64,000 nt of DNA from a virus: IMG/VR virus record IMGVR_UViG_3300044647_001784, positions 22,297 to 86,296 of that record. One strand, given 5' to 3'. Below the pieces are notes generated by a model. The model did no database searches and was not told the DNA's origin. It saw nothing but the letters and a program-made list of their open reading frames with translations. The translations under genes were made by a program, and so were the position numbers. Below, one piece after another: positions 2,042 to 63,091 of the stretch (position 1 is its first letter; each line of letters opens with the position of its first letter).

Positions 2042-5000
2042 TATATATTCTTCCCCTGTCCAACCATTTTAACATTAACCTTAGCCTTTTGTCCAATAAC
2101 TGCTTCTGCTTTGCGAACAATTATATTGGATAGGGCCTCTACATCCATTCCATCAGATGCGTATATGTTTTGGTTAACAGTATAAGATGCTCCAGATGAA
2201 CCTTCCCCTCTTATGCCAAATGAAGGTCTATCAAAATTATATCTAGGCATTGCCGCCTCTGGATTAAATGGATTCATTGTAGCAGGTATTATAGACTCAT
2301 TTTTATGAATCAGAGCTAACATATCTTGTGGAACTACATTAATTCCATCTTTAAATTTAGGAACATTTAGTTTTCCATTACTAATATATCCGCCTGTAGC
2401 AGCGGATGTTGAATTATGTATAGCTGGCCAGATTCCTTCTAGCAGTGGTTTAAAAGATTTTCCATATTTTTCATACTGCTCTATAAATCTTTCAAGAGTA
2501 GAAGGCAAAAATTCATCAAGAACTCCATGGGTTTTTATAAGTTCTGATTTTGGCAATATATTTTTTAATAGCTTTATACGGTTTTCTGGGTCTAGCGTGG
2601 CAACAACGGCATGGAATGTGTCGGAATTTGTTAGCTTTCCGCCAGTATGAACAATGGTGTCCATTAACCATTTTGGACCACCTTTGCCATTTACGGCAAA
2701 TGCTTCGTTTAAATATTCTCCCTGGAATAATGATAGCCTGTCTATTAACGCTTTGCTAAGCCTTGCTACGCCTGGGACCCTTTCTCCAGCTAGCATATCC
2801 CTTGCTTCTTCTCTTGACATTTTTAAAACATCAATAAAATATTTTTCTACAGCCGCATAACCCTTTTTGTTTTGTGACCATAGAGAAGGAGCTCCGCCTC
2901 GCATGTCCCATACCTTTGACATGTCTTCTGGGACTCTAAATAAAGTTTTCCATAACGATCCGCCTTTTTCTGCATTTTTACCTACTGCATACTCTCTTGC
3001 CATTATTTTTTCTACAGTAGCAAATAAATCAAAATTAAATATGTTTCCGCTTAAAGAAACATTTTTAGAAGATGGAGTTAGTCTATTTAAAAGATCTTCT
3101 GGTAAGTTTCCTCCATGATAAAAATCTTGTTTAAAAAGTTCTTCTAATGAAAGGTCTAGCCCTAGGCCTGTGTCGGCTGTAGTTTTGCTCATATTCATCT
3201 TTTTTGCTGATCTTAGTGCTTGAATACTTCCTACGGGGGTATATCTGTAAAGAAAATCAGATATCATTTTTGGTGAAAATTTTAAAAGTTTCTGTGAGAT
3301 ATTTTCTTTTGAGAACATTGAAGTTAATTTACCAACTCCATTTTTTAATGGAGTCATGACTGGGTTTATAAATTTATTTTTCATTGCTGCTGCGGCCTCT
3401 CCCAATGCTTGCATGGGATGGAGTTTAGATGGAGGCAAGTTTGTAAACCAATCATCATCATTTGCAGGCCCTGGTGGAGCACCTGATCCGCTTCGCCTTG
3501 GTGGAGGTGGCCTATTAACTATATCTTCAAAATAAGACTTTCCAGTTGTTGATGTATAGTCAAAAGCATTTTTAAACTTGCGAATTAGACCTTCTGGTTT
3601 AAGGCCTATTGCTTTATATAAATTATTTTGAAGTGGCTTTACTTTACCTAAAGTGTTCCAGGTGACTAATTTTAACAGATCCTTTCCAAGAGACGGTATT
3701 TTGCTAAGCGCTCTAATTAAAGGTGCGCCAAGTGAAGATGACTGTTTTGCTACATTTGCTGTCGGATTTGCAAGTGCCGATCTGGCAGACCCCATTCCAA
3801 GAAAGTTGAGTGGGAAAAGTATTGAACTTAGAGTATCTCCTGATTCAGCCTGTCCAGCCATTTTTCTTAATATTGATCCAGCACCAAGAGCGTCTGCTTT
3901 GTTGTTTGATGTCATGAAAGATGGAAGCATTCCTGCTGCTTCTTTTTGAGATTTTGTTAGCTCTGATACATATCTTTGGAACCAATTTTGTTTTTCTGGA
4001 AGATTTCTTCCGTGCCTATGCCCAACTGGTCCACCCTTGTGGAACAACAGTGGGCCAAACCCATATGCACCGTTTCCAGAAAAGCCCATAGAGGCTCCAG
4101 ATCCTGCTAAACGCATTGGATCTTTATCAATACCCATTCCTGGACCACGATATTTACTTGGCTGCTCAGCCATCTGATGCCAGTAATCTGATTGTTGTGG
4201 TGTCTTTCCAGTAAATTTAAGTCCTGGAATTTCTGTTCCGCCCCAGATGTCTTTACCCTTTGAAGGATTGTATCTTAGCTCTCCCCACCTTCCAGTGCGT
4301 GGATCTCCAGTTGGCTTTCCGTTGCTCCAGTAATCTGGAAGATCAGGACGCCATGGGAAAAATGGAAGCTGCTGTTTTTGAGGCTTCTGTTTACCTACTG
4401 GGCCACCTTCTGCTCTTCTAAGGGCTTTGTGCAAAGAATCTACGGCGTCTGGTCCACCAGCTGCATCTACAGCCTTTGCACTAAATACATATTCTCCATC
4501 TGAAAGCATTGCTGGAATTGAATCTGATGTTGCGGTACCTGGACCAGATACTTTTCCGCCTTCATGTAAAGCGGGGCCCTTTGGAGCTGGCCCAGTCCAA
4601 ATTGGAGTTCCGCCAGTAGTATTTTGTCTATATCTTTGGCCATCAACTATAAATGTTTCTCCTGGCTGAAGGTCAAGTCTCTTTCTAATAGCGTCACGAG
4701 CTTGTGCATTCAGAACTTGTACTTTTTTGCCATCATACTCTTTAGTTTCTTTGCTGTCAGAATAATCACCAGTTACCTTAATGTTTTCTCTTAGTGCAGG
4801 TTTTCCATTTATTCCCTTGACTGCATCAACAACATCTTTTAGAGTTGCTCCGTCACCTAATGCTTTTACAAGAGCCGTATTTACTCCTGTAGCAGCACCA
4901 GATTTTGCTAGAAGCTCTAATGCGTTTTCATATGGGGCAATTGGAACCTTTTCTGTAACCAACATGCTGCCATTATAATATGTTCTTTCTTTATACTTTG

Positions 5001-16494: not shown

Positions 16495-17474
16495 TATATC
16501 AAAACCATAGTGCTTAAGACATACTCAGACAGAAGCTGATCAGCGTAATTGTTTCCAGTTCCGCTAAATGTTGCAGTGTCATATTCAAACTGCCAGTCAA
16601 ATGTCTGTATGCTCTTTAAGTACTTGTTTCTCCAGTCTTTATCTTTAGAGAAGAAGTCTTTCATTAACTCTATGGTAGCTAACTCAACTTCATACGGTAC
16701 TTGATCCCAGCCATATCTTCCTTCAATTCTATAAGCTCCACCATTTACAAAAGACCCATTATTGTAGTCATTAATACTTGGAGGGACCATTCCGTTTGCT
16801 GTGTAAACTACATTATCTAATAAGCCAGACTTATTTACTTTTATTCCAAATCCACTAGAAGATATTTCTACTGGGACATTCCAATTATCAATATTATTTA
16901 TTCTATCAATAAGAAGTATGTCGTTTAGATGTATGGAATGTATCTCATTTATTTTGTGTGGCAATGGGAGAATTTCTGATCCAGTTGCGTATATCACATT
17001 TACATCATCATATAGATAAAACTCTTGTCCAGTGTAGCTTTCAATAAGTTTTCTTGCATATCTTTCTGCTGCTGCTAAATCTACAAATGTTTTGTAGTTG
17101 GGATCAGATTGATCAAAGCCAAACCCTAAAGCATCTGCAGCATTTGTTAAATCAACATATGGCTTTACAACATCAAGAAGATGCTCTTTAACTACACTTT
17201 CTTCATCTACTTCATATTCCCAAACTAGCCTCAATGTCCTTGGTCTATTCGTTAAGGATATTGGAGGGTATACCAAATATACGCCTCTATCTGTTTCTGC
17301 CTCTTCGGCAGTTTGGGTTAGAAGTAAAGTGTTTGGATTTATAGAAGGCTCTATTGATGGATCATTTGTTACATCATAAAATTTAACAGTAGGCAAAGAG
17401 TCTGCTTGAGCTATCCCGCCCTTCCAAAATACTCTTTGCTTTACTGGTGAGTTTGTTCCTACTATAATTTCCAT
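16494..17474 (-). CDS. Head-to-tail adaptor
   Basis: 'AERYARKLIESYTGQEF', 'GRYGWDQVPYEVELATIEL', 'TGNNYADQLL' match the gp6/gp15-like adaptor pattern. Confidence 0.7.
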   Translation of the reverse strand: MEIIVGTNSPVKQRVFWKGGIAQADSLPTVKFYDVTNDPSIEPSINPNTLLLTQTAEEAETDRGVYLVYPPISLTNRPRTLRLVWEYEVDEESVVKEHLLDVVKPYVDLTNAADALGFGFDQSDPNYKTFVDLAAAERYARKLIESYTGQEFYLYDDVNVIYATGSEILPLPHKINEIHSIHLNDILLIDRINNIDNWNVPVEISSSGFGIKVNKSGLLDNVVYTANGMVPPSINDYNNGSFVNGGAYRIEGRYGWDQVPYEVELATIELMKDFFSKDKDWRNKYLKSIQTFDWQFEYDTATFSGTGNNYADQLLSEYVLSTMVLI

Positions 17475-49962: not shown

Positions 49963-50408
49963 TAGTTTGTATAGACTTGCAGAAGTATTCCGCATATACA
50001 TACTAGGATTGATATTACACCTATCCAAAATATAGTTTTCATTTTCCGCCCTTTATTAGCTTATTGATGCAACTAACGCAAAAGTTTTCTAGTACGCCTT
50101 TTGAGTTTAATCTTTCAACGTATTTTGGTCTATCACAGAAGTTGCATTTCATAATTTAAGTATATCATATTTTTAGTTGACTGCTATTTGAGATCTTACA
50201 AAATGTTAATAAATTTTTAATATGTATGATACACATATTTGAAATGTCCGTTTTGTCTGCATAGTCCGCACATATGTTTAAGGGCTTGAGCGTGAGTGTG
50301 ATGGACCTCACAAAAGTTTTTTGACGACACGCCCGAGAAACGGGCATAAATGTCAGTCCCCCCTGCTATGCTTAAGGTATAACAAAAACAAACGAAAGGG
50401 GTCACACA

Positions 50409-50564: not shown

Positions 50565-50748
50565 GGTAAATCACACGACACACCCTAGCAACCTCCCCAA
50601 TTTGTCAGCCCCATACGCTACAATTACAACATAACAACAACGAAAGGTCAGAATAAATGACACTAGATGAATACAAGGCGCTAGTAGAAGCGCAACGCAA
50701 GGAAAGCCTTGCACAAGCCCTATCCGCACTAACAAAAGAGGTTAAATA

Positions 50749-51274: not shown

Positions 51275-51940
51275 ATCGCTTACTAACTACACTAGTGCAA
51301 CTATCTATCGCTATCCCCGCCCTATACATGATGAGGATCGTGTACCATGATTTCAAGGCAGAGATGCGAGAGATGTGGCAAGAATCACACTAGGGTAACG
51401 GCGTGTCGCCTTGACAAAGGCGTCAGCTGCCCCTATCTTTTGTGGGGGGTTATCCACAGGTTAAGAAGGTCTGTGGAAAACCCCTGAAATTTTGTGAGAT
51501 TTATCACATAGGCTGAGCGTCTCACATCTTGGAATTACTCGCTAGTAAGTAGCCAAATGTCAGCCCCTTAGTGTAAAATTCCTACTATAACAACAACGAA
51601 AGGGGTCATACCTTGACCATACTAATCTCATCAGAGGTTTTAGAGAATAGAGAATTATCTAACTCTAATCCATACATGTATCAAAAAGCAAAAACTTATT
51701 TGCTATCATGCACAATTTGTGCGAATAACTATTTAGAAATTTTTGCAAAAGATGCAGACTTTACTAAATTTACTTGTGAGGAGTGCTGGTAATCATGGCA
51801 GTTTATGAGTTTAATGCTTTTATAAATGTAGAGGCTGAATCCTATGATGATGCTATTGATACATTTCAATTTCAATTAAAATACGGAATAAATCAAAATA
51901 ATGTTTATGTTGCCGACATAAGAGATTTGGAGTTAAGCGA

Positions 51941-52135: not shown

Positions 52136-52504
52136 GCGACTTATTTGGATTTGAAAAAGCAATTCAGCTCGATCATCTTAGCGATGAACAAATAAATCAA
52201 TTAGAGGAAATTCTAAAAGATTATCAATAGATAGCGGCGTGTCGCCTTGACAAACAGGGCGGCACCCCCACATATGCACGGGGTCGGGCGTGTCGTTATG
52301 AAGATGTTATAAAATCCCCCGAAATTTACGGCGTGTCGATTTGACAGGGTTATCCACAGATCTCGGGCGTGTCGTCCACAGGCTAAATGTGATTACTATC
52401 ACACGGCTTGAGCGTCTCATTATTTGGATTTACTGGCTAGTAATTATCTTTTGTCAGTGCTATCCGCTATAATTGCTACTATCAACAAACGAAAGGCGGA
52501 CTCC

Positions 52505-52717: not shown

Positions 52718-52806
52718 ATAAAATCGAAACAGGGGCAGTTTAGAGAGTGTTCTCGCCCAATGTCGTAAGTAAGAACTCTCACCAATTTTTTAACGAAAGG
52801 AAAACT

Positions 52807-52971: not shown

Positions 52972-53290
52972 TGGGATACATTGAGATTTTTAGAATGGAT
53001 CAAGACGGGGCGGGTTGGGTAGATTTATCCGAAGCCACCCCCGATGAACTATTTACTATTGAGGTTGGGCTACTTAATGAGGGAGCCTTATTCACTAGCC
53101 CCGAAGCCGACTAAATGTCAGTGGGCTAGGCTATAATAAGCAATAACAACAACGAAAGGAAAACTATGATTAACTCAGTAATGACTATCGAGTGCGTGGA
53201 TTGCCACGGATACGGAATTATCTTTTTTGGTAATGATAACGACTATGATTGCGAGCCATGCGATTGCGTGGAAGAATTGGAGAACAACTA

Positions 53291-53682: not shown

Positions 53683-54038
53683 AGTAAAACGCATTCAGGA
53701 ATTGCGCCGCAGTAATGCGGCGCAACCTGTTCGCAATAAAAAAAAATACACACGCAAAATAAAACATAAAAATAAATTTGACACTTAACGCAAAATCCCG
53801 CACATAGCTGCGGGGTCGGGCGTGTCGTTAAGGACGTGATGTAAATCACCCTGGAATTTTGGGCGTGTTGTGGAAAATGTCAGTGGCCTATGGTATTATT
53901 CTCTTAAATCAAACGAAAGGCTCATCCCATGGATTTTTATGATGACTACTATGAAACAGATATGATACGCCCTGACGCTAAGTCATGCTATTGTACTAAC
54001 CATTCTATTTGTACTAATTGCACTAAGGGGTATAACTA

Positions 54039-54761: not shown

Positions 54762-55040
54762 TGTATGAGGTTATTGGTATGATTGGCGGATCTATGGTAA
54801 TTCTTATATCGCTCCTGCCAATTTTATTAGCTGCATATGTAATATCTAAATTGTAACAGCGTGTCGGCTTGACAATGTCAAGCTGGCCCGCAATGTTGCG
54901 GGGTTATCCACAGGTTTAAGGGGCTTATCCACAAGCCCCTGGAATTATGTGAGATTTATCACAAGGCTCATGCGTAAATAGATTAGGTAATGTCAGTGGG
55001 CTATGTTATAATTCTCTTATCCAACAACGAAAGGCAATAA

Positions 55041-55791: not shown

Positions 55792-55876
55792 CATAGGGCA
55801 GGGGGGTCGCAGAAATGTCAGACCCTCCTGCTATACTACTCTAACAAACAACCAACCAACGAAAGAGAGAAAATAA

Positions 55877-56598: not shown

Positions 56599-56803
56599 AA
56601 GGTGGGGCAGCTAATTCTGCCCCGCCCAAGCTTGGCCCGCAATAATGTGCGGGGTTTTCCACAGGTTTAAGAGGGCCTGTGGATAACGCCTGGAATTTGT
56701 GAGATTACTCACATGGATCAATTCGGACATATTGTAACTAATCATAGACAATGTCAGTGGGGTCTGTTATACTTACAACTAACTAAACGAAAGGTAAAAA
56801 TAT

Positions 56804-57811
56804 ATGGCTCACAATCTCGAAACCGAAAACGGCGAAGTTGCTTTTGCATTGCGTGGCGCACCTGCATGGCATAATCTTGCTAATCGTATCTTCACACAAG
56901 ATGAAGATGTTACTACTCAAATGATGTTAGATGAGGCAAAACTATCTAACTGGAATGTTCGTCTATCTCCATTGACCGACCACATCTCAGATACATGGAA
57001 TGATGTATCTAATGCTCAATTAGTTATTCGTGACAACCCATTCAATAGCGGAACTGATGTTCTTGCTACTGTTGGTAAGCGTTACAAGCCTGTGCAAAAT
57101 GAAGAATTGTTTGCATTCGCAGATGCAATTCATGATGCCAATGCTGATTGCCGTTGGGAATCTGCTGGCTCACTTCGTAGCGGTAAGGTTGTTTTTGGTA
57201 CTGTGGATATTCCTCGCACAATGGTGCTTGACCCACAAGGTGCAAATGATGAAACCAAGTTGTATCTAATTGTTTGGACATCACATGACGGGTCTGTTGC
57301 GGTTCAGGCTGCAGTTACCCCTGTTCGTGTAGTTTGCCAAAACACATTGAATCTTGCAATGCGTAATGCTAAGCAATCTTTCAAGATTCGTCACACGCAA
57401 TCTGTTGAAGGTCGCATTCAAGTAGCCCGCGAAACTCTTGGGCTTGCTCTTGGATACTTTGATGAATTTGAGAAAGAGGCTCAGGCTCTTTATTCTCAAT
57501 CAATTACTGATGCTGAATTCTCAAAGTTAATTCAGACAATTTATCCTAAGCCAGATAAAGATTCTGCTAAGGTTGCGCTAACTAAGTGGGAGAATAAGGT
57601 TGTCCTTCTTGACAATCTTTATCATAACTCACCAACTAACGCTAACATCAAGGGAACTAAGTGGGGTGCGTTCAATGCACTAACTGAACGCCTTGACTAT
57701 TATCGTTCAGGTCGCGGAAATTCTGAAACACTTATGGCTGGTGCATCAGGGTTTGACCCAATTCTTACCGCAGAAAAAAATAAAATTAAGAAATTAATTT
57801 CTGCGTTTTAA
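56804..57811 (+). CDS. DUF932 / TIGR03299-like phage/plasmid protein
   Basis: 'PAWH.L', 'VGKRYKPVQN', 'ESAGSL..G', 'SHDGS', 'TPVRVVCQNTL', 'RHT', 'WGAFNALTE'. Confidence 0.85.
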   Translation: MAHNLETENGEVAFALRGAPAWHNLANRIFTQDEDVTTQMMLDEAKLSNWNVRLSPLTDHISDTWNDVSNAQLVIRDNPFNSGTDVLATVGKRYKPVQNEELFAFADAIHDANADCRWESAGSLRSGKVVFGTVDIPRTMVLDPQGANDETKLYLIVWTSHDGSVAVQAAVTPVRVVCQNTLNLAMRNAKQSFKIRHTQSVEGRIQVARETLGLALGYFDEFEKEAQALYSQSITDAEFSKLIQTIYPKPDKDSAKVALTKWENKVVLLDNLYHNSPTNANIKGTKWGAFNALTERLDYYRSGRGNSETLMAGASGFDPILTAEKNKIKKLISAF

Positions 57812-57818
57812 TAAATAA

Positions 57819-57846
57819 ATTCCTGAGCATGAATAAAAACTGCTCA
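57819..57846 (+). ncRNA. Candidate small H-type pseudoknot (copy 2)
   Basis: ATTC-CTGAGCAT-GAAT-AAAAAC-TGCTCA. Confidence 0.45.
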
Positions 57847-57858
57847 CAATTTTTTCTA

Positions 57859-57932
57859 GGTCCATTAGCTCAGTTGGTTAGAGCGCTACCCTGTCACGGT
57901 AGAGGTCGACGGTTCAAGTCCGTTATGGATCG
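57859..57932 (+). tRNA. tRNA-Asp (anticodon GUC)
   Basis: GGTCCAT/ATGGATC acceptor; CTACC-CTGTCAC-GGTAG anticodon arm; GACGG-TTCAAGT-CCGTT T-arm. Confidence 0.9.
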
Positions 57933-58038
57933 CAAATCGCCCGCAATATTTAGGGACAAAAAAGTGTGTTAAGTGTCACATAAAAAAATCCCTGGAATCT
58001 ATAGACAAATGTCAGTGGGACCCTGTATAATTCTCTAC

Positions 58039-58656
58039 ATGACCAACGAACTAGTATCAAGCGTATATACATTTGTCTGTGACCCAGATGAATGCGATTC
58101 TTTAATTCAATTAACATCATCTGATGGATTTGGTTTTCCTTCAGGTGTGACAGAACTCACATGCCCTTGCGGACGTAAGACCACCTTATTGTCAGTCGAG
58201 CATGCTACAATTACACCAACAACAACGGAAGAGGTAAAAATGGAAACAACTACAGACAATCACTACATGACACGAGAATTCCTTGAGTCACAGTTAGTAG
58301 ATAACAAAGCCCGCATTACACAGTTAGAAGAGCACATCCAGCGTATAACTCAGCGTGATTATGCAACTGCAGGAACTCTAAGCAAATTGCGTGATGACAT
58401 GAAGGTATTCACACTCGAAGGCCTTGATGACGAATCTCTTACAGAATTTCAAGCAGAAGAAATTGCTGGCATCTGTGGATTTGAACTAACAAATGAGTTT
58501 GAACTAGAAGTAACAGTTCTATATTCAATTACAGTTAATGCTCGTGATGAAGAGAGTGCACATAATCTAATTCATGATATTGATTTTGACACCGTGTCTT
58601 ATGACTCAGACGGTATTAGTTGGCTATCATCATCTGTAGATAGAATTGAGAACTAA
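58039..58656 (+). CDS. Hypothetical protein; leaderless long form (Cys-rich N-terminus) with internal start at 58240
   Basis: ATG 7 nt after the -10 of promoter 58010; a second promoter (58190) and GAGG RBS precede in-frame ATG 58240. Confidence 0.6.
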   Translation: MTNELVSSVYTFVCDPDECDSLIQLTSSDGFGFPSGVTELTCPCGRKTTLLSVEHATITPTTTEEVKMETTTDNHYMTREFLESQLVDNKARITQLEEHIQRITQRDYATAGTLSKLRDDMKVFTLEGLDDESLTEFQAEEIAGICGFELTNEFELEVTVLYSITVNARDEESAHNLIHDIDFDTVSYDSDGISWLSSSVDRIEN

Positions 58657-58976
58657 TGTTAAAAGAAGGAGAAAACATTGTTTACCTTAAATTAAGAATT
58701 CAAAATGAAATAAAAGATTTAAGTTTAAATCATCCTGAATTATTAGAAGAGTATAAGCAAGATGCAATTAAATCTATTTTTAATTCAGCTATCCTTAAAG
58801 AAACTTTGTCCGTTAAAGAGTTTAGGGATTTAGTGTCAACAGTACGACCTGATTTTTATGAGGGGTATACGATTGAAGATGCAGAAGCGGAATGGGAATC
58901 TATAAAAACAGGCATGATTATTGTTTCTCTTTTTGTTGTGATAGTTGGCGCTCTTATACTTAAGTGGGTGTTCTAA
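58656..58976 (+). CDS. Hypothetical protein with C-terminal TM helix
   Basis: ORF track; TAATG coupling. Confidence 0.55.
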   Translation: MLKEGENIVYLKLRIQNEIKDLSLNHPELLEEYKQDAIKSIFNSAILKETLSVKEFRDLVSTVRPDFYEGYTIEDAEAEWESIKTGMIIVSLFVVIVGALILKWVF

Positions 58977-59179
58977 TGTACTTTGAACTTACCGCTCCAT
59001 CTCGTGTAGCCTTTGCGAGGGCCATTTGGGATGCAGAAATAACTGGACTAGACCCTGAAGCAATGAGTGCATTGACATTCAACATAGGAACTGGTAGTAT
59101 TGAGAAAGTAAGTAGGATTCGTGATAAGTATAACTTAATTGAATCTTATGTAAGCGACAGTAAAACTACAGGATACTAG
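58976..59179 (+). CDS. Hypothetical protein
   Basis: Start at TAATG overlap. Confidence 0.55.
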   Translation: MYFELTAPSRVAFARAIWDAEITGLDPEAMSALTFNIGTGSIEKVSRIRDKYNLIESYVSDSKTTGY

Positions 59180-59330
59180 GAGATAAAATGTCAGACTATA
59201 AAGATGGTTTTGAAGATGGGTACAAGTTTGCCCGTGAAGAAATTATAGAAAAACTATCAGAGATTGATATCGCAGATATTGATACATGGATTCTTGATCG
59301 TCTATCTGACATGATAGAAGGCGGAACGCT

Positions 59331-59528
59331 ATGAACGAATGGGTTGGGTGCGATAAGTGTAACTCAGTAGTACCTGCAATGTATTTAATTAAAATGGTTA
59401 GCGGAGAGCTTTCTTTCTGTGGACACCACTTTAATAAGTTCAAGCCTAGTCTTGACAAAATCGCTTACGAAGTGATAGAATTAAACAAAAAGGAAGAAGT
59501 ACCTCAACTAGTAGAAATGGCGGAATAA
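59331..59528 (+). CDS. Small Zn-finger-like protein (CxxC...CxHH)
   Basis: 'CDKC...LSFCGHH'. Confidence 0.6.
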   Translation: MNEWVGCDKCNSVVPAMYLIKMVSGELSFCGHHFNKFKPSLDKIAYEVIELNKKEEVPQLVEMAE

Positions 59529-59529
59529 A

Positions 59530-59931
59530 ATGGGAGATAGAGCAAACTTCGGATTTAAACAATCCAATGGAGAAACAATTGTGCTATACGGACACTGGGC
59601 TGGACATGGAATGTTAGAGCGCTTAGCAGATGCTGTTGAAGCAGCACGTTCTAGGTGGGGAGATGAATCATATGCTACCCGCATTGCGGTTTCGCATTTA
59701 GTTGGAGAACAATGGCAAGATACAACTGGATGGGGATTATCTGTTAATAACATCCTAGACAACGAGCACAAGATTCCTGTGATTGACTGGAATACACAAA
59801 CGTTTTCACTGCACGAAGAGGCGCCTTGGTCCGAGTCGACAGAATATAAGGTCCGTGGAATGCAAGACGAGCCCATATTCAAAATGACATTGGATTCATT
59901 TATTAATAAGTACTCAAGGGTTAATGCATAA
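59530..59931 (+). CDS. Hypothetical protein
   Basis: 133 aa; 'LYGHWAG'. Confidence 0.65.
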   Translation: MGDRANFGFKQSNGETIVLYGHWAGHGMLERLADAVEAARSRWGDESYATRIAVSHLVGEQWQDTTGWGLSVNNILDNEHKIPVIDWNTQTFSLHEEAPWSESTEYKVRGMQDEPIFKMTLDSFINKYSRVNA

Positions 59932-59940
59932 TTAATCTAA

Positions 59941-60067
59941 GGGTGCCCCTATAGTCATTAATGGCCAGGGGTTAAATAAAGCAGAGTTCTTTTACTTTCG
60001 TTGGTGAACCTCTAGCAGCCTATGTAAAACCCCAGTTATGGAATAAGCCCCTACAGCTGGGGTTTTT
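59941..60067 (+). ncRNA. Candidate sRNA / structured 3' UTR with anti-RBS loop
   Basis: Three successive hairpins, the last terminator-like; the middle loop is TTTTACTTTCGTTGGT. Confidence 0.5.
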
Positions 60068-60246
60068 GCATGGCCCGCAAAAGACTAAGGGTAATATATT
60101 TCTTTTACGGTGTCAATATGAAATCGCCTGGAATTTTGTGATCTTGACCACATGCATACAAAATGTGGTGTGAAACACACCCAAATAGTATTCCATTTGT
60201 CAGTGGTCCAATGTATAATTATCACATATCAACGAAAGGATATAAA

Positions 60247-60981
60247 ATGCCAAATTGGGTATTTAATGGATTAACAATTGAAGGTAATCCTGAGCAAGTA
60301 AAATCTTTAATCAAGCAGATGAATAAGCCATTTGTTTATTCTATTACTGCATTAGGTGATTTATCATATGATGTCAAGCAGACTAAGTATATTAATCCTA
60401 TCTTTGCTTTTCATAATATCTATAACTATAGAGATGCTGGTATTACTGATGAGGTATATCATGGACAGCCTCCTCGTTCCACCGATTTTTCTCAGGCAAT
60501 GAAGTTTGAAACCAATGACTGGTACAACTTTAATGTGCGTGAGTGGGGAACCAAGTGGGATGTTGCTGTAGCAGAGGATAATAAGTATCCTGATACAACT
60601 ATTGAAGAAGCAGAAAATGGCGAGAACTATGTAGTTCATTACAATTTTAATACTGCATGGTCACGACCTCTTGGCGCTATTGAAAAACTATCTGCACAAT
60701 ACCCAACACTACTCTTTACTTTATCATATGAGGAAGAGACAGGTTGGGGTGGAGAAATGGAATTCCTCCGTGGTGAAGTTATCTCAGAATCAGAATACGA
60801 TAATATGTGCCGTGATTGTGATGCAACTGACCAAATGGAATACTGCGAGAATGACTGCGGTGAAATCTGTAGCAACTGCAACTGGCTTGGCGAGGCAGAC
60901 CTAGAGGCTGTCGCAATTTGTCAGACCCATAAGATATACTTAGACACTAAAGTACCCGAATATAGAAAGGCGGAAGCATAA
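60247..60981 (+). CDS. DUF1281/YubB ferredoxin-like family protein with Cys-rich tail
   Basis: 'MPNW', 'WYNFNVREWGTKWD', 'FNTAWSRP', 'YEEE'. Confidence 0.7.
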   Translation: MPNWVFNGLTIEGNPEQVKSLIKQMNKPFVYSITALGDLSYDVKQTKYINPIFAFHNIYNYRDAGITDEVYHGQPPRSTDFSQAMKFETNDWYNFNVREWGTKWDVAVAEDNKYPDTTIEEAENGENYVVHYNFNTAWSRPLGAIEKLSAQYPTLLFTLSYEEETGWGGEMEFLRGEVISESEYDNMCRDCDATDQMEYCENDCGEICSNCNWLGEADLEAVAICQTHKIYLDTKVPEYRKAEA

Positions 60982-61193
60982 TGGAAGCATTTACAGATAC
61001 AGTAGGAGAACATATCCTTGGAGCAATTCAAGTAGATATTGAGCAACATCTCTTTGAACAATGGAACAGCAAAAATTTAGATGAGGGTAGCGATTATGCT
61101 GAATATATGTTCATGCAATTTGCTCCTGATAGCCTAAAGCAATCATACAATGAGTATTATGGCTATATTGAGGGAGATGAGTTTCTATTATGA
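60981..61193 (+). CDS. Hypothetical acidic protein
   Basis: ORF track; TAATG coupling. Confidence 0.55.
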   Translation: MEAFTDTVGEHILGAIQVDIEQHLFEQWNSKNLDEGSDYAEYMFMQFAPDSLKQSYNEYYGYIEGDEFLL

Positions 61194-61505
61194 TTACATC
61201 ACAAGAACTACTTGACTATATGTATGATGACAACTTAAGTCATTTTGACGACAGAGACACATCAGATGATTGTGATTGTTATATTCACATAACACTTAAT
61301 ACTATGCTTAAATACATGGAGGCAATAGAATGTTAGGATATACTAAAACAGATATAGATGAAATGGGGAATGCTATGCATGACGCCAAGCTTTTCTATAT
61401 TCTTAAATCAGATATCGTTCGTGTTGATGAAGATCCAATTGTGGACGGGCTACTAAAAGCACAAGACTTTCTACAGGGCTTATGGGCAGAAGGGTACTTT
61501 GACTA

Positions 61506-61742
61506 ATGAAGTTTGGCGATGCTATGGTTCTTGCTCTACTTATTCAAATCCCGTTGATTCCCGTGGTTGCTTTTGTTGATTGGATTAATGCCCCTGATAA
61601 ACCAGATAAAGTAGTTTGTTATTATCAGGGAGGGTTTGGACATTTTGATGACCCAACTGTACACAAATACACAACAATTGGAAACTGTTCAATAACTCAT
61701 AAACAAAGATACTTTCTGAAAAAGGAGATAATTAATGACTAA
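61506..61742 (+). CDS. Small membrane/secreted protein
   Basis: N-terminal hydrophobic stretch. Confidence 0.5.
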   Translation: MKFGDAMVLALLIQIPLIPVVAFVDWINAPDKPDKVVCYYQGGFGHFDDPTVHKYTTIGNCSITHKQRYFLKKEIIND

Positions 61743-61944
61743 GTCATCTTATTTCCTGGAGTATATGAAGTTACATCTAATTAGTCTTAATCAAGATTGG
61801 GAAGATTCTAAAAATAGCGTACCTTTAAATGAAGATGAATATGACCCTTCAGATGATTACTATGTAGGAGCAACTGAGGCTGTTGAACATTTATTGTCAG
61901 TGGCTACTGATATAATGAATTCTTCTAACGAAAGGTATGAATAA
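61735..61944 (+). CDS. Hypothetical protein
   Basis: AGGAG RBS; contains promoter 61895. Confidence 0.55.
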   Translation: MTKSSYFLEYMKLHLISLNQDWEDSKNSVPLNEDEYDPSDDYYVGATEAVEHLLSVATDIMNSSNERYE

Positions 61945-62147
61945 TGAATATAACATCTAGAGAAGTTACTTATCGTTCCGCCGTTGAACAAATCTTTTTT
62001 GAGGACGGGACAGAATTGGTAATCACAGTCGGTGCTCCTGCCGAAGGCGGAGGAGATATCGATATTAAATATGATTGGGTAGAAGGAAAGCCTGATTGGG
62101 CAAACAACTTAAATGAATCAACACTAGTGAACTATGAGGTAATCTAA
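61944..62147 (+). CDS. Hypothetical protein
   Basis: Behind promoter 61895 with AACGAAAGG. Confidence 0.55.
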   Translation: MNITSREVTYRSAVEQIFFEDGTELVITVGAPAEGGGDIDIKYDWVEGKPDWANNLNESTLVNYEVI

Positions 62148-62419
62148 TGAATGCAGAAGACATTGGGCTCCCACCTCATTTGCAACGCATGGTCAATGCA
62201 GGTGTTAGTGGATTAGATATAATGCACGGAGAACTAAAGAATCTAATGTTAATTGCTGAGCAAGACCTAGCAAGCGCATTAGAACAGGAGGAATTGTCTG
62301 AAGAGGCAATGGATTCCATGGTCCGCACAGAATGTGAAGGGCGCCTAGACATGCTAGTAGAACTATATAATCTAACATACCAACTATCATTTGCGATTGG
62401 AGCACGGGATGAAGCCTGA
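62147..62419 (+). CDS. Hypothetical protein
   Basis: GAGG RBS; TAATG coupling. Confidence 0.55.
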   Translation: MNAEDIGLPPHLQRMVNAGVSGLDIMHGELKNLMLIAEQDLASALEQEELSEEAMDSMVRTECEGRLDMLVELYNLTYQLSFAIGARDEA

Positions 62420-62723
62420 CGATAAAGATAAACTAAACAAATGTTTAGAGATTCTAGACAGCACTGACTTAGGTCTATCATTAGTTTGGTTGTGGACATG
62501 GTCGACAATTGACAATATCTTAAATGATGACAACTACAAGGCCAAGGTAACCAAGGACCAGATGTGGGACCACCTCTGCGAGGCTGTGGAGGCTGGCCAA
62601 GGGTTCTCTTTGGAGTGGGGAGCAGAACAACATCAAGAAGAAGTTTTAGACTGGATGTTAAACAGGGACTACATCGTAGACCCCGAAGATGAAGATGAGG
62701 AGGACGAAGATGAAGATGAGTGA
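62409..62723 (+). CDS. Hypothetical protein with acidic tail
   Basis: Start at 62409; ends DPEDEDEEDEDEDE. Confidence 0.55.
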   Translation: MKPDDKDKLNKCLEILDSTDLGLSLVWLWTWSTIDNILNDDNYKAKVTKDQMWDHLCEAVEAGQGFSLEWGAEQHQEEVLDWMLNRDYIVDPEDEDEEDEDEDE

Positions 62724-62941
62724 TGACTATATTAATGATCAATTAAACAAGGCTCAACAATTGCTATGGGGTGGCAGCGAAACTGAAAACATCGAAGCCC
62801 ATAACATTATATCTAAACTAATTAAAGACAGAATAGAACAAGTTTCATAAGGGCAGAAAAAATGGTTTACGGCGACTATTTACAATTCCGTGGAAAGTTG
62901 CTATAATTAACAAAACAACTATCTCTTGAAAGGGGATTAAA

Positions 62942-63091
62942 ATGACAACAAAGCGTGAATATCTAAAGCAGCAGGGCATTACAGTTGGTGTGCGTGGGCG
63001 CTTCTCAGGAGCAGCCAAGGTAGCTCTAGCTGAGGCGGAGGCCAAGGGCGTTAAGTTTACTGCAGAGGCACCTGTCAAAAAGGCGAAGTAG
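62942..63091 (+). CDS. Lsr2-like DNA-binding-domain-only protein (49 aa)
   Basis: MTTKREYLKQQGITVGVRGRFSGAAKVAL...; own TTTACA-N17-TATAAT promoter and GAAAGGGG RBS; below the ORF-track cutoff. Confidence 0.65.
   Translation: MTTKREYLKQQGITVGVRGRFSGAAKVALAEAEAKGVKFTAEAPVKKAK

Follow-up and report, generated by a model that had tools for sequence, protein, structure and literature searches.

The DNA analysed here, which we call the window, is a stretch of 64,000 nucleotides (nt) representing the right-hand 64 kb of an 86,296-base IMG/VR virus record with an estimated completeness of 80%. From 1 to 49 kb it is occupied by big genes located mainly on the - strand, and those scanned include genes for a class II ribonucleotide reductase-like protein, a lectin-fold protein and a 2OG-Fe(II) oxygenase. 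From 50 kb onward numerous small genes are found on the + strand, among them those encoding DUF932, GP88 and Api92-like/DUF1281_C proteins. Within this latter region, at 59941-60067 of the + strand, lies the element under study, which is very probably a real gene for a structured RNA. It comprises a core of about 80 nt folded as a three-way junction (P1, P2/P2a and P3), followed by an intrinsic terminator, and the tip of P3 carries a sequence complementary to a leader that recurs before early genes of the same phage. The gene upstream encodes a protein of 133 amino acids (aa) and ends with a stop codon at 59929-59931, and the gene downstream, with its start codon at 60247, encodes a 244-aa Api92-like/DUF1281_C protein. 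Between 59932 and 60065, no open reading frame (ORF) of at least 25 aa was found on either strand.

Architecture and expression signals of the RNA gene

A preliminary description of this locus had proposed three hairpins, of which the middle one would expose a 16-nt loop and the third would act as a terminator. The hairpins and the terminator are indeed present; however, the first two are not independent, as they are closed into a three-way junction by pairing of the 5' strand of P1 (GGGU, 59941-59944) with its 3' strand (GCCU, 60018-60021), the latter preceded by the single-base J3/1 strand (A60017; 60017-60021 together). The GG/CC and U-G pairs of P1 are invariant, and the pairs flanking this helix covary (AU 29, UA 18, GU 15 and GC 14 at alignment columns 10/137). 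The second arm, at 59945-59972, is composed of P2 (59945-59950 with 59967-59972), an internal loop and the P2a hairpin (59954-59957 with 59962-59965), and is joined to the third by the strand J2/3 (59973-59980), which reads UAAAUAAA in the window, has the family consensus UAARUAAN and is nearly invariant in two alignments. P3 extends from 59981 to 60016 and displays a GC/GC base, a bulged A60014, a covarying stem and a weak inner helix that closes a UUCGUU hexaloop (59997-60002). In the family consensus, P1 is formed by GGU/GCC plus 3-7 covarying pairs, P2 by GCNNCU/AGNNGY, and P3 retains the GC/GC base with the bulged A. The terminator, at 60026-60067, consists of a long hairpin rich in G+C and a run of five U after it, as had been proposed for the third hairpin.

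The sequence proposed for the 16-nt loop, TTTTACTTTCGTTGGT, was found at the expected place, 59990-60005, yet the loop is not fully open, since the inner helix (59991-59996 with 60003-60008), which is favoured by both the minimum-energy fold and covariation, leaves only the hexaloop unpaired. This helix is weak: opening 59993-60004 is predicted to cost about 2 kcal/mol, and CUUUCGUU, the invariant part of the motif throughout the family (59995-60002), is unpaired with a mean probability of 0.65. The anti-leader motif as a whole, CUUUCGUUGG, spans 59995-60004 in the window, with a core CTTTCGTTG at 59995-60003.

Pairing beyond the three arms was also considered. A pseudoknot joining J2/3 to the 5' half of the P3 loop can be drawn with 7-8 contiguous pairs in members of the UAAGUAAA type, and in long-loop members the minimum-energy fold shows the same pairing as an alternative hairpin. 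Across 54 distinct members, best matches averaged 4.98 nt, versus 4.94 nt for shuffled loops, and this pseudoknot is therefore unsupported overall. In one lineage (L038, at about 3392-3488, L039 and L041), the junction strand UAAGCAAU replaces UAAGUAAN, together with GCGGCC replacing GCAGCC. This joint change of U to C in J2/3 and of A to G in J3/1, a single base, is a hint that the two form a tertiary base pair across the junction.

Transcription would presumably start shortly downstream of a candidate -10 element (TG + CATAAT, 59925-59932; scan match TTAATA-18-CATAAT) that overlaps the stop codon of the upstream gene and lies 8 nt before P1, and would end at the terminator. In near relatives, TATAAT is found at the same place, 8-11 nt before GGTGC. 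Among 122 distinct upstream regions, TA(T/C)AAT is present in 90, and 67 of these 90 also carry TG at the extended -10 position, typically as TGGTATAAT; TGTCAG, the element of the early-gene promoters, is found upstream of none of the 90 RNA promoters with TA(T/C)AAT. The distance to P1 is 8-11 nt in the window's clade, and in most clades 31-43 nt separate the TGGTATAAT element from P1, with a small covarying 5' hairpin in between (AGGAC..GUCCU, AGGCC..GGCCU or ACGGC..GCCG; for example L055 2660-2712 and L129 2670-2718), which is missing from the window's clade. In many relatives TGGTATAAT is made of the last two codons of the upstream gene plus its stop codon (ATG GTA TAA), and consequently the end of the coding sequence overlaps the promoter.

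At the other end of the gene, the terminator is the least conserved piece, its hairpins differing between clades or being absent at that place in some relatives. Between the RNA and the start codon at 60247 lie this terminator and a separate TGTCAG/TATAAT promoter (about 60200-60225), both intervening before the downstream gene, and for this reason a riboswitch or 5' leader of that gene was rejected. A second conserved block is located right after the terminator, at 60073-60130 (GCCCGCAAA...AGGGTA...TTACG..GTCAAT), and is retained in nearly all relatives, even those with a replaced terminator.

Of ten sequencing runs from four studies, four were examined, three from one freshwater study and one from a lake-water study, all as Logan contigs, which carry no strand, ends or usable depth; the wastewater and other small-share runs carry no weight as to habitat. 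The three runs of the freshwater study, which are metatranscriptomes, hold 29-41% of the sampled words of 57000-63000, and of the 13-14 contigs that each of them contributes, 9-11 are alike to 99% or more. One contig of 207 nt (depth 3.6) spans 59829-60035 with zero differences; it comes from an RNA library in which DNA carry-over is possible. The interval 60036-60215 has almost no contig cover in the three runs, from which nothing can be concluded. The metatranscriptome contigs show the presence of the sequence, rather than a discrete RNA, its strand or its ends, and are a weak hint of expression.

Conservation of the scaffold and of the loop motif

Loci were fetched through the two flanking proteins (43 and 80, respectively). 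By blastn, 46 loci (36 distinct sequences) share the first 90 nt or so past the upstream stop codon, and the terminator part is often replaced. In a MAFFT alignment of 48 distinct copies, 93.5% of the pair cells are paired, versus at most 53% when the partners are slid; in an alignment of 86 sequences the value is 90.9%, versus at most 49% in slid controls. The latter alignment was fitted to a covariance model and hence leans toward the structure, a lean from which the MAFFT-based count is free. The covariation score of the 86-sequence alignment is 0.376, compared with at most 0.116 in slid controls, and was reached by none of 500 shuffles. Within the P2/P2a region, helix 2 is paired in 100% of the cells of the 86 sequences, with compositions such as GC 41/CG 35/AU 9/UA 1 and GU 36/UG 28/CG 22, and helix 3 in 91%, with three of its four pairs altered on both sides; helix 4, in P3, is paired in 94% and has four of six pairs altered on both sides. 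Since G-U cells (399) far exceed A-C cells (43), the + strand is the folded strand. The junction nucleotides (GGUGC, CUA, AG, UAARUAA and GC...AGCAGCC) are nearly invariant, whereas the stems covary. The RNA core is more conserved than the neighboring coding gene in 25 of 25 distinct relatives, with a mean nucleotide identity of 0.91 versus 0.76. Taken alone, the core has a weak thermodynamic z-score (-0.73).

A covariance model built from the 48-copy alignment detects a single copy in the window and no further one in the rest of the record, and one match in each of the 86 chosen sources. Among larger related IMG/VR records, 38 of 39 contain one match, including all 19 that are at least 90% complete, and the single record without a match is 66% complete. 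The phages of this group measure about 105-117 kb and come from freshwater metagenomes. A weak second match of the model at 57550-57627 (+), inside the DUF932 gene (16.1 bits, E 0.19), is probably due to chance. In Rfam, no family matches the RNA at gathering thresholds, and the matches up to E = 10 are sub-threshold and at chance level; the RNA represents a new structured-RNA family. A scan of a genome collection placed it on three short contigs (2.9-3.5 kb) of metagenome-assembled genomes, attributed to a Bacteroidia bacterium, a Polynucleobacter sp. and an unclassified bacterium (L351, L352 and L353, respectively); these are most likely phage fragments binned into such assemblies and hence give no evidence of the host. 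In a phage collection, neither blastn with positions 59400-60700 of the window nor tblastn with the 244-aa downstream protein returned a match, and tblastn with the 133-aa upstream protein returned only distant homologues, about 34% identical, in phages of Streptomyces, Gordonia and Nocardia.

In order to survey the loop, a search pattern was used that holds core features only and nothing from P3, and it recovered at least 119 stretches, which pooled with the earlier loci gave 108 distinct variants. Among the variants listed, TTTCGTTGG is found in 77 of the 108 and CTTTCG in 23 more (23 by reading), mostly as CCTTTCGTT(T/C). Four of the remaining eight are true members with another P3 and the other four are, by appearance, chance or coding matches, so that among those listed the motif is kept in 100 of 104 family variants. 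The motif is nearly invariant across the family, and it is cheap to open. Moreover, the invariant CUUUCGUU is kept through three P3 architectures, namely the short-loop type of the window, the L052 type and a long-loop type in which about 21 bases are unpaired. In the four members with another P3 (scores of 35.7-49.4 bits), this arm is a GCGC tetraloop hairpin (L118 and L254) or bears an unrelated loop (L256 and L289). At the level of genomes, G004, a complete genome with terminal repeats, holds the scaffold with a bare tetraloop P3, and G002, like L289, holds it with an unrelated loop.

Two observations on these motif-less members concern the gene that follows. In L289 (about 3070-3110), whose RNA loop is CCUCGAAAA, that gene is seemingly leaderless, with a TTGACC-17-TAGAGT-like promoter ending 6 nt before its ATG. 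In G002 (L355, about 16957-16990), the 3' part of the loop-less RNA contains a promoter-like site (TTGACG...TATATT) 6 nt before the next ATG, and hence RNA and promoter overlap.

Early-gene leaders as candidate targets

Most promoters between 50 and 62 kb had been described as being followed by a common leader just upstream of ATG, a leader that was confirmed here. The sequence AACGAAAGG occurs 11 times in the window, always on the + strand, versus 0.35 copies expected, a number that none of 100 shuffles reached; with one AACGAAAGA variant, the leaders amount to 12. Likewise, the region from 50.3 to 62 kb holds 12 + strand copies of ACGAAAG, all of them followed within a few bases by a start codon, and a TGTCAG...TATAAT-like promoter lies, by reading, upstream of 11 of these 12 leaders. 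For the ACGAAAG copy of the - strand, no TGTCAG promoter was seen within 75 bases on its upstream side, and the 23 bases that follow it lack a start codon. The possibility that the loop sequence is instead the ribosome-binding site of a - strand ORF is not borne out, for there is neither an ORF of at least 25 aa nor, within these distances on the - strand, a TGTCAG promoter or a start codon.

The complementarity of the loop to these leaders is as had been described. The complement of CUUUCGUU, AACGAAAG, has 12 copies on the + strand of the window, each shortly ahead of a start codon, and one on the - strand. The exact complement of CTTTCGTTG, the 9-mer CAACGAAAG, is found in 6 leaders, and the 8-mer AACGAAAG in 12. 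The best match, 11 of 11 positions, is to the leader ACCAACGAAAG of gene 55877 (55855-55865), whose predicted duplex of -20.2 kcal/mol is the lowest of 34 early start regions. The other candidate targets, all on the + strand, are the leaders at 50391-50399, 52488-52496, 52792-52800, 53912-53920, 56786-56794 (DUF932 gene) and 61927-61935, which carry AACGAAAGG; those at 50639-50647, 51595-51603, 53151-53159 and 55026-55034, which carry (C)AACGAAAGG and match over the 9-mer; and that of the 244-aa Api92-like/DUF1281_C gene just downstream of the RNA, (UC)AACGAAAGG, at 60231-60239. The leader at 52792-52800 is the sole one without TGTCAG upstream.

Among all 8-mers of the window's RNA, only CUUUCGUU has strongly strand-biased complements (12 on the + strand versus 1 on the - strand), the AU-rich 8-mers having many matches on both strands. 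The terminator loop was tried as a second seed, and its complement TTCCATAA is also biased (8 on the + strand, 0 on the - strand); all eight sites are nevertheless found before 49 kb (2948-48765), outside the early-gene region and without leader context, and they were not retained as candidate targets.

NAAC-GAAAG leaders are found in all related clades. In the 23 genomes with the motif, whose presence was verified in 20 + 3 of them, AACGAAAG occurs 7-14 times on the strand of the RNA and 1-4 times on the other, the latter count including the RNA's own complement where the individual sites are listed; a control read backwards occurs 0-9 times. In G005, the corresponding 7-mers were counted 13-14 times versus 0. 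In contrast, the two genomes with a motif-less RNA, G004 (complete) and G002 (85%), have 4 copies on the strand of the RNA, which is within the control range, and their early leaders are heterogeneous. Presence of the motif therefore goes with abundance of the leader, in an association of 23 versus 2 genomes that derives from related lineages.

The sequences flanking the motif were compared with the leaders clade by clade, in clade-level contrasts that do not represent independent events. Long-loop RNAs, in which UUCC precedes CUUUCGUU, match the leaders of their own clade (GAAAGGAA) over a mean of 9.97 nt, compared with 8.95-8.96 nt for the leaders of other clades; RNAs of the L052 type match over 8.64 nt on their own leaders and 7.69-8.26 nt on others. 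No such advantage on their own leaders is displayed by the RNAs of the window type.

Candidate role of the RNA and relation to known systems

Two features of trans-encoded small RNAs are found here: a conserved and accessible seed, and complementarity of this seed to initiation regions of mRNAs encoded elsewhere. Based on this, repression in trans of early-gene translation by the small RNA is plausible, and we hypothesize, with a confidence that falls slightly short of even, that this phage RNA pairs through the tip of P3 with the early leaders, competes with the 30S subunit and damps translation of the early genes. The gene would be transcribed from the promoter whose -10 lies over the upstream stop codon, yielding a three-way-junction RNA of about 80 nt followed by the terminator. 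In its junction core, P1, P2, J2/3 and the base of P3 form a conserved scaffold, on which CUUUCGUU(GG) is exposed at the tip of P3, in a hexaloop closed by a weak helix. This tip would pair with AACGAAAG(G), a sequence made up of three bases and the 5' half of the ribosome-binding site that follows them; about a dozen promoter-proximal early genes carry it in their very short leaders. Competition with the 30S subunit would lower the translation, and probably also the stability, of the mRNAs bearing the leader. Because the RNA has its own promoter class (an extended -10 without TGTCAG), its level could rise independently of its targets, which might bring about a delayed shut-off or a damping of the early class. 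A broader version, in which the RNA is a modular riboregulator combining an invariant scaffold (possibly a handle for a chaperone or nuclease) with an exchangeable P3 seed and timing the shut-off of the whole early regulon, is conceivable, and we hold it with somewhat less confidence.

Several observations weigh against pairing with the leaders as the role of this RNA. The motif covers only about 12 genes, and it lies within 30 nt of the chosen start in just 9 of 34 + strand ORFs (at least 50 aa, after 49,950, as called by a crude caller). An off-switch for the whole gene class, as the preliminary description had it, is accordingly reduced in scope: the small-RNA gene on the + strand and a loop complementary to a multi-copy leader hold, whereas only 12 leaders carry the motif. 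The covariation of loop and leader envisaged there is likewise found solely as the joint presence of motif and abundant leaders (7-14 copies in 23 genomes, 4 in two genomes); base by base none is observed, both partners being invariant, and the base before AACG (C, A or U) varies within a phage whatever the loop has. Duplex energies separate early from late start regions modestly (means of -13.0 and -10.9 kcal/mol, respectively), with shuffled probes at -11.3 +/- 0.77 kcal/mol and the best shuffle at -13.5 kcal/mol. Two of the motif bases, C59995 and U59996, are paired in the predicted fold. Concerning expression, the -10 of the window is only CATAAT, with TG directly adjacent, and the 207-nt contig also extends 100 nt into the upstream gene, for which read-through or DNA carry-over may account. 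Finally, the scaffold is retained in two lineages without an anti-leader sequence in P3, and G002 still has 3-4 leaders of the early type, 3 of them ACGAAAGG; since the scaffold survives without the loop while G002 retains leaders, the RNA must have a function beyond leader pairing. In the 7-mer target profiles of the G004 and G002 RNAs, no alternative multi-copy target stands out.

The survival of the scaffold without the seed makes it necessary to consider, as the main rival explanation, that the scaffold itself performs the main job, as a protein-binding or decoy element or in a catalytic or structural role, the P3 tip serving that job or another partner and the leader match being secondary. 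Junction nucleotides that stay nearly invariant while the stems covary would be expected in such a case, as would a scaffold kept with a bare tetraloop P3 (G004) or an unrelated loop (G002 and L289), and the coupled U to C and A to G changes in J2/3 and J3/1 of one lineage, with their hint of a tertiary contact, point the same way. Nevertheless, this explanation is rather unlikely in our estimate, for it leaves unexplained the retention of CUUUCGUU in 100 of 104 listed family variants through three P3 architectures, the long-loop flanks that extend the match to the leaders of their own clade and the fewer leaders where the motif is absent; furthermore, no Rfam family or ribozyme model matches the RNA. 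In another explanation, the RNA would regulate by base pairing host mRNAs, or a host RNA, with ribosome-binding sites resembling AACGAAAG, in a host shut-off or takeover, and the phage leaders would simply share a good ribosome-binding site. GAAAGG is, in general terms, part of a plausible Shine-Dalgarno sequence; the overlap of the motif with the Shine-Dalgarno element, and a plain extended -10 promoter suited to immediate expression, are compatible with host targets. The phage's own leaders would however be hit too, and the conserved AAC before the Shine-Dalgarno part, matched by GUU in the loop, goes beyond what ribosome binding alone explains, which makes this an improbable alternative.

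A role closer to the locus would be that of a cis-acting 3' element of the mRNA of the upstream 133-aa gene, that is, a protective or processing structure followed by a terminator. The RNA begins 10 nt past the stop codon of that gene, the -10 of the window is weak, one contig from an RNA library bridges the gene end and the RNA, and synteny with the 133-aa gene is retained in relatives, these having been fetched through that very gene. On the other hand, most clades conserve an extended -10 (TGGTATAAT), then a 5' hairpin, then the RNA; in all 25 relatives compared, conservation of the RNA exceeds that of the gene; the terminator is the piece that varies most; and a simple stabiliser would not need an invariant junction together with an invariant loop motif. 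We therefore see little likelihood in a cis-acting element. As for chance complementarity in an ordinary intergenic terminator region, the weak z-score of the core alone (-0.73) and the frequent matches of AU-rich 8-mers on both strands would be in its favor, whereas covariation, the status of a single-copy core gene, the invariance of the motif, the strand bias of the targets (12 versus 1) and a leader count reached by 0 of 100 shuffles exclude it for practical purposes.

If repression of the early leaders by this RNA is true, a single RNA would time the shut-off of an early regulon. It would be the RNA equivalent of T4 RegA and, among phage small RNAs, the first described to target a regulon of its own genome as a whole, a matter that bears on the post-transcriptional timing of early-gene expression in a large phage. 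The family also adds a new structured RNA, a single-copy core gene with a sharply defined 8-nt seed and about a dozen predicted targets per genome, and the persistence of its scaffold without the seed raises the question of the scaffold's own role. To our knowledge, only a small number of small RNAs encoded by phages have been described, nearly all of them in phages that infect enterobacteria or one of a few further model hosts. Literature listings outside subscription journals and supplements yielded neither such an RNA nor the motif in a phage context, and in these and the accessible text of a 2025 review (PMC12197685) we found no phage small RNA that targets a leader shared by the phage's own early genes.

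Several known RNA classes were compared with this RNA and rejected as its identity. A transfer-messenger RNA (tmRNA) comes to mind through the cultured Streptomyces phage BoomerJR, in which, within 96603-97296 (L357 2501-3194), a 279-nt tmRNA gene (gene 187; tag ANSNVASAYALAA) directly follows the homologue of the 133-aa gene, in a region dense with transfer RNA (tRNA) genes; the small RNA occupies the equivalent slot in the window's phage group, and its junction strand plus GCN resembles the context of a resume codon. However, ARAGORN predicts no tmRNA in the window or in 15 relatives, the frame read from GCN is not conserved over 106 variants (stops appear after 3 to 39 codons or never, and the frame shifts between clades), and the covariance model of the RNA finds nothing in the BoomerJR region (best match 10.8 bits, E 0.29, elsewhere). 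A tRNA or tRNA-like element is likewise rejected, as neither ARAGORN nor the Rfam tRNA model detects a cloverleaf at the RNA; the only matches of ARAGORN/Rfam in the window are a tRNA-Ile and a tRNA-Asp, both away from the small RNA. The tRNA-Asp(GTC), at 57859-57933, is about 2 kb upstream of it and is found at the same locus in 11 of 15 relatives by ARAGORN. Self-cleaving three-way-junction ribozymes (hammerhead and others in Rfam) are not among the matches up to E = 10 in 59900-60100. Finally, the start of P2 in some members resembles what we take to be the 3' strand of the last 16S helix, a mimicry of 16S rRNA that was put down to coincidence, as two variable P2 positions covary freely.

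In the actinobacterial 6C RNA and the staphylococcal UCCC-loop small RNAs, C/U-rich loops mask the Shine-Dalgarno sequences of several mRNAs. The RNA described here resembles them in a conserved, loop-exposed, pyrimidine-rich seed and in having its own promoter and intrinsic terminator. Nonetheless, those are host genes acting on host regulons, whereas this RNA is encoded by a phage, matches the phage's own repeated leader and is built on a three-way-junction scaffold whose junction bases are invariant; no Rfam family, 6C included, matches it.

The nearest known mechanism is that of the c4 antisense RNA of phages P1 and P7, whose complementary sequences are thought to be located in loops and which, according to the accessible part of the source, binds around the ribosome-binding site of a phage mRNA transcribed elsewhere and blocks its translation (PMC12197685). 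As far as that text goes, both are small, structured, phage-encoded RNAs with a loop complementary to a phage ribosome-binding region. In contrast to c4, which acts on one operon (ant) in immunity, the RNA of the window would act on about a dozen separate early transcripts; the two share no similarity of sequence or structure, and their phage groups and probably the host phyla differ. Of the Rfam C4 clan (C4, c4-2 and c4-a1b1), only c4-2 returned a match, at 23.2 bits versus a gathering threshold of 41, and it falls on the terminator (60027-60067), not on the core. In terms of function, the nearest system is RegA of phage T4, which in the accessible part of the source competes with the ribosome at the initiation regions of about 30 phage mRNAs and so damps a temporal class (PMC3014915). 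The likeness is a functional analogy only, that of one factor for a whole class: as far as that source describes it, RegA is a 122-aa protein recognizing A+U-rich sites around AUG, whereas the repressor proposed here would be an RNA recognizing a leader of 8-10 nt by base pairing.

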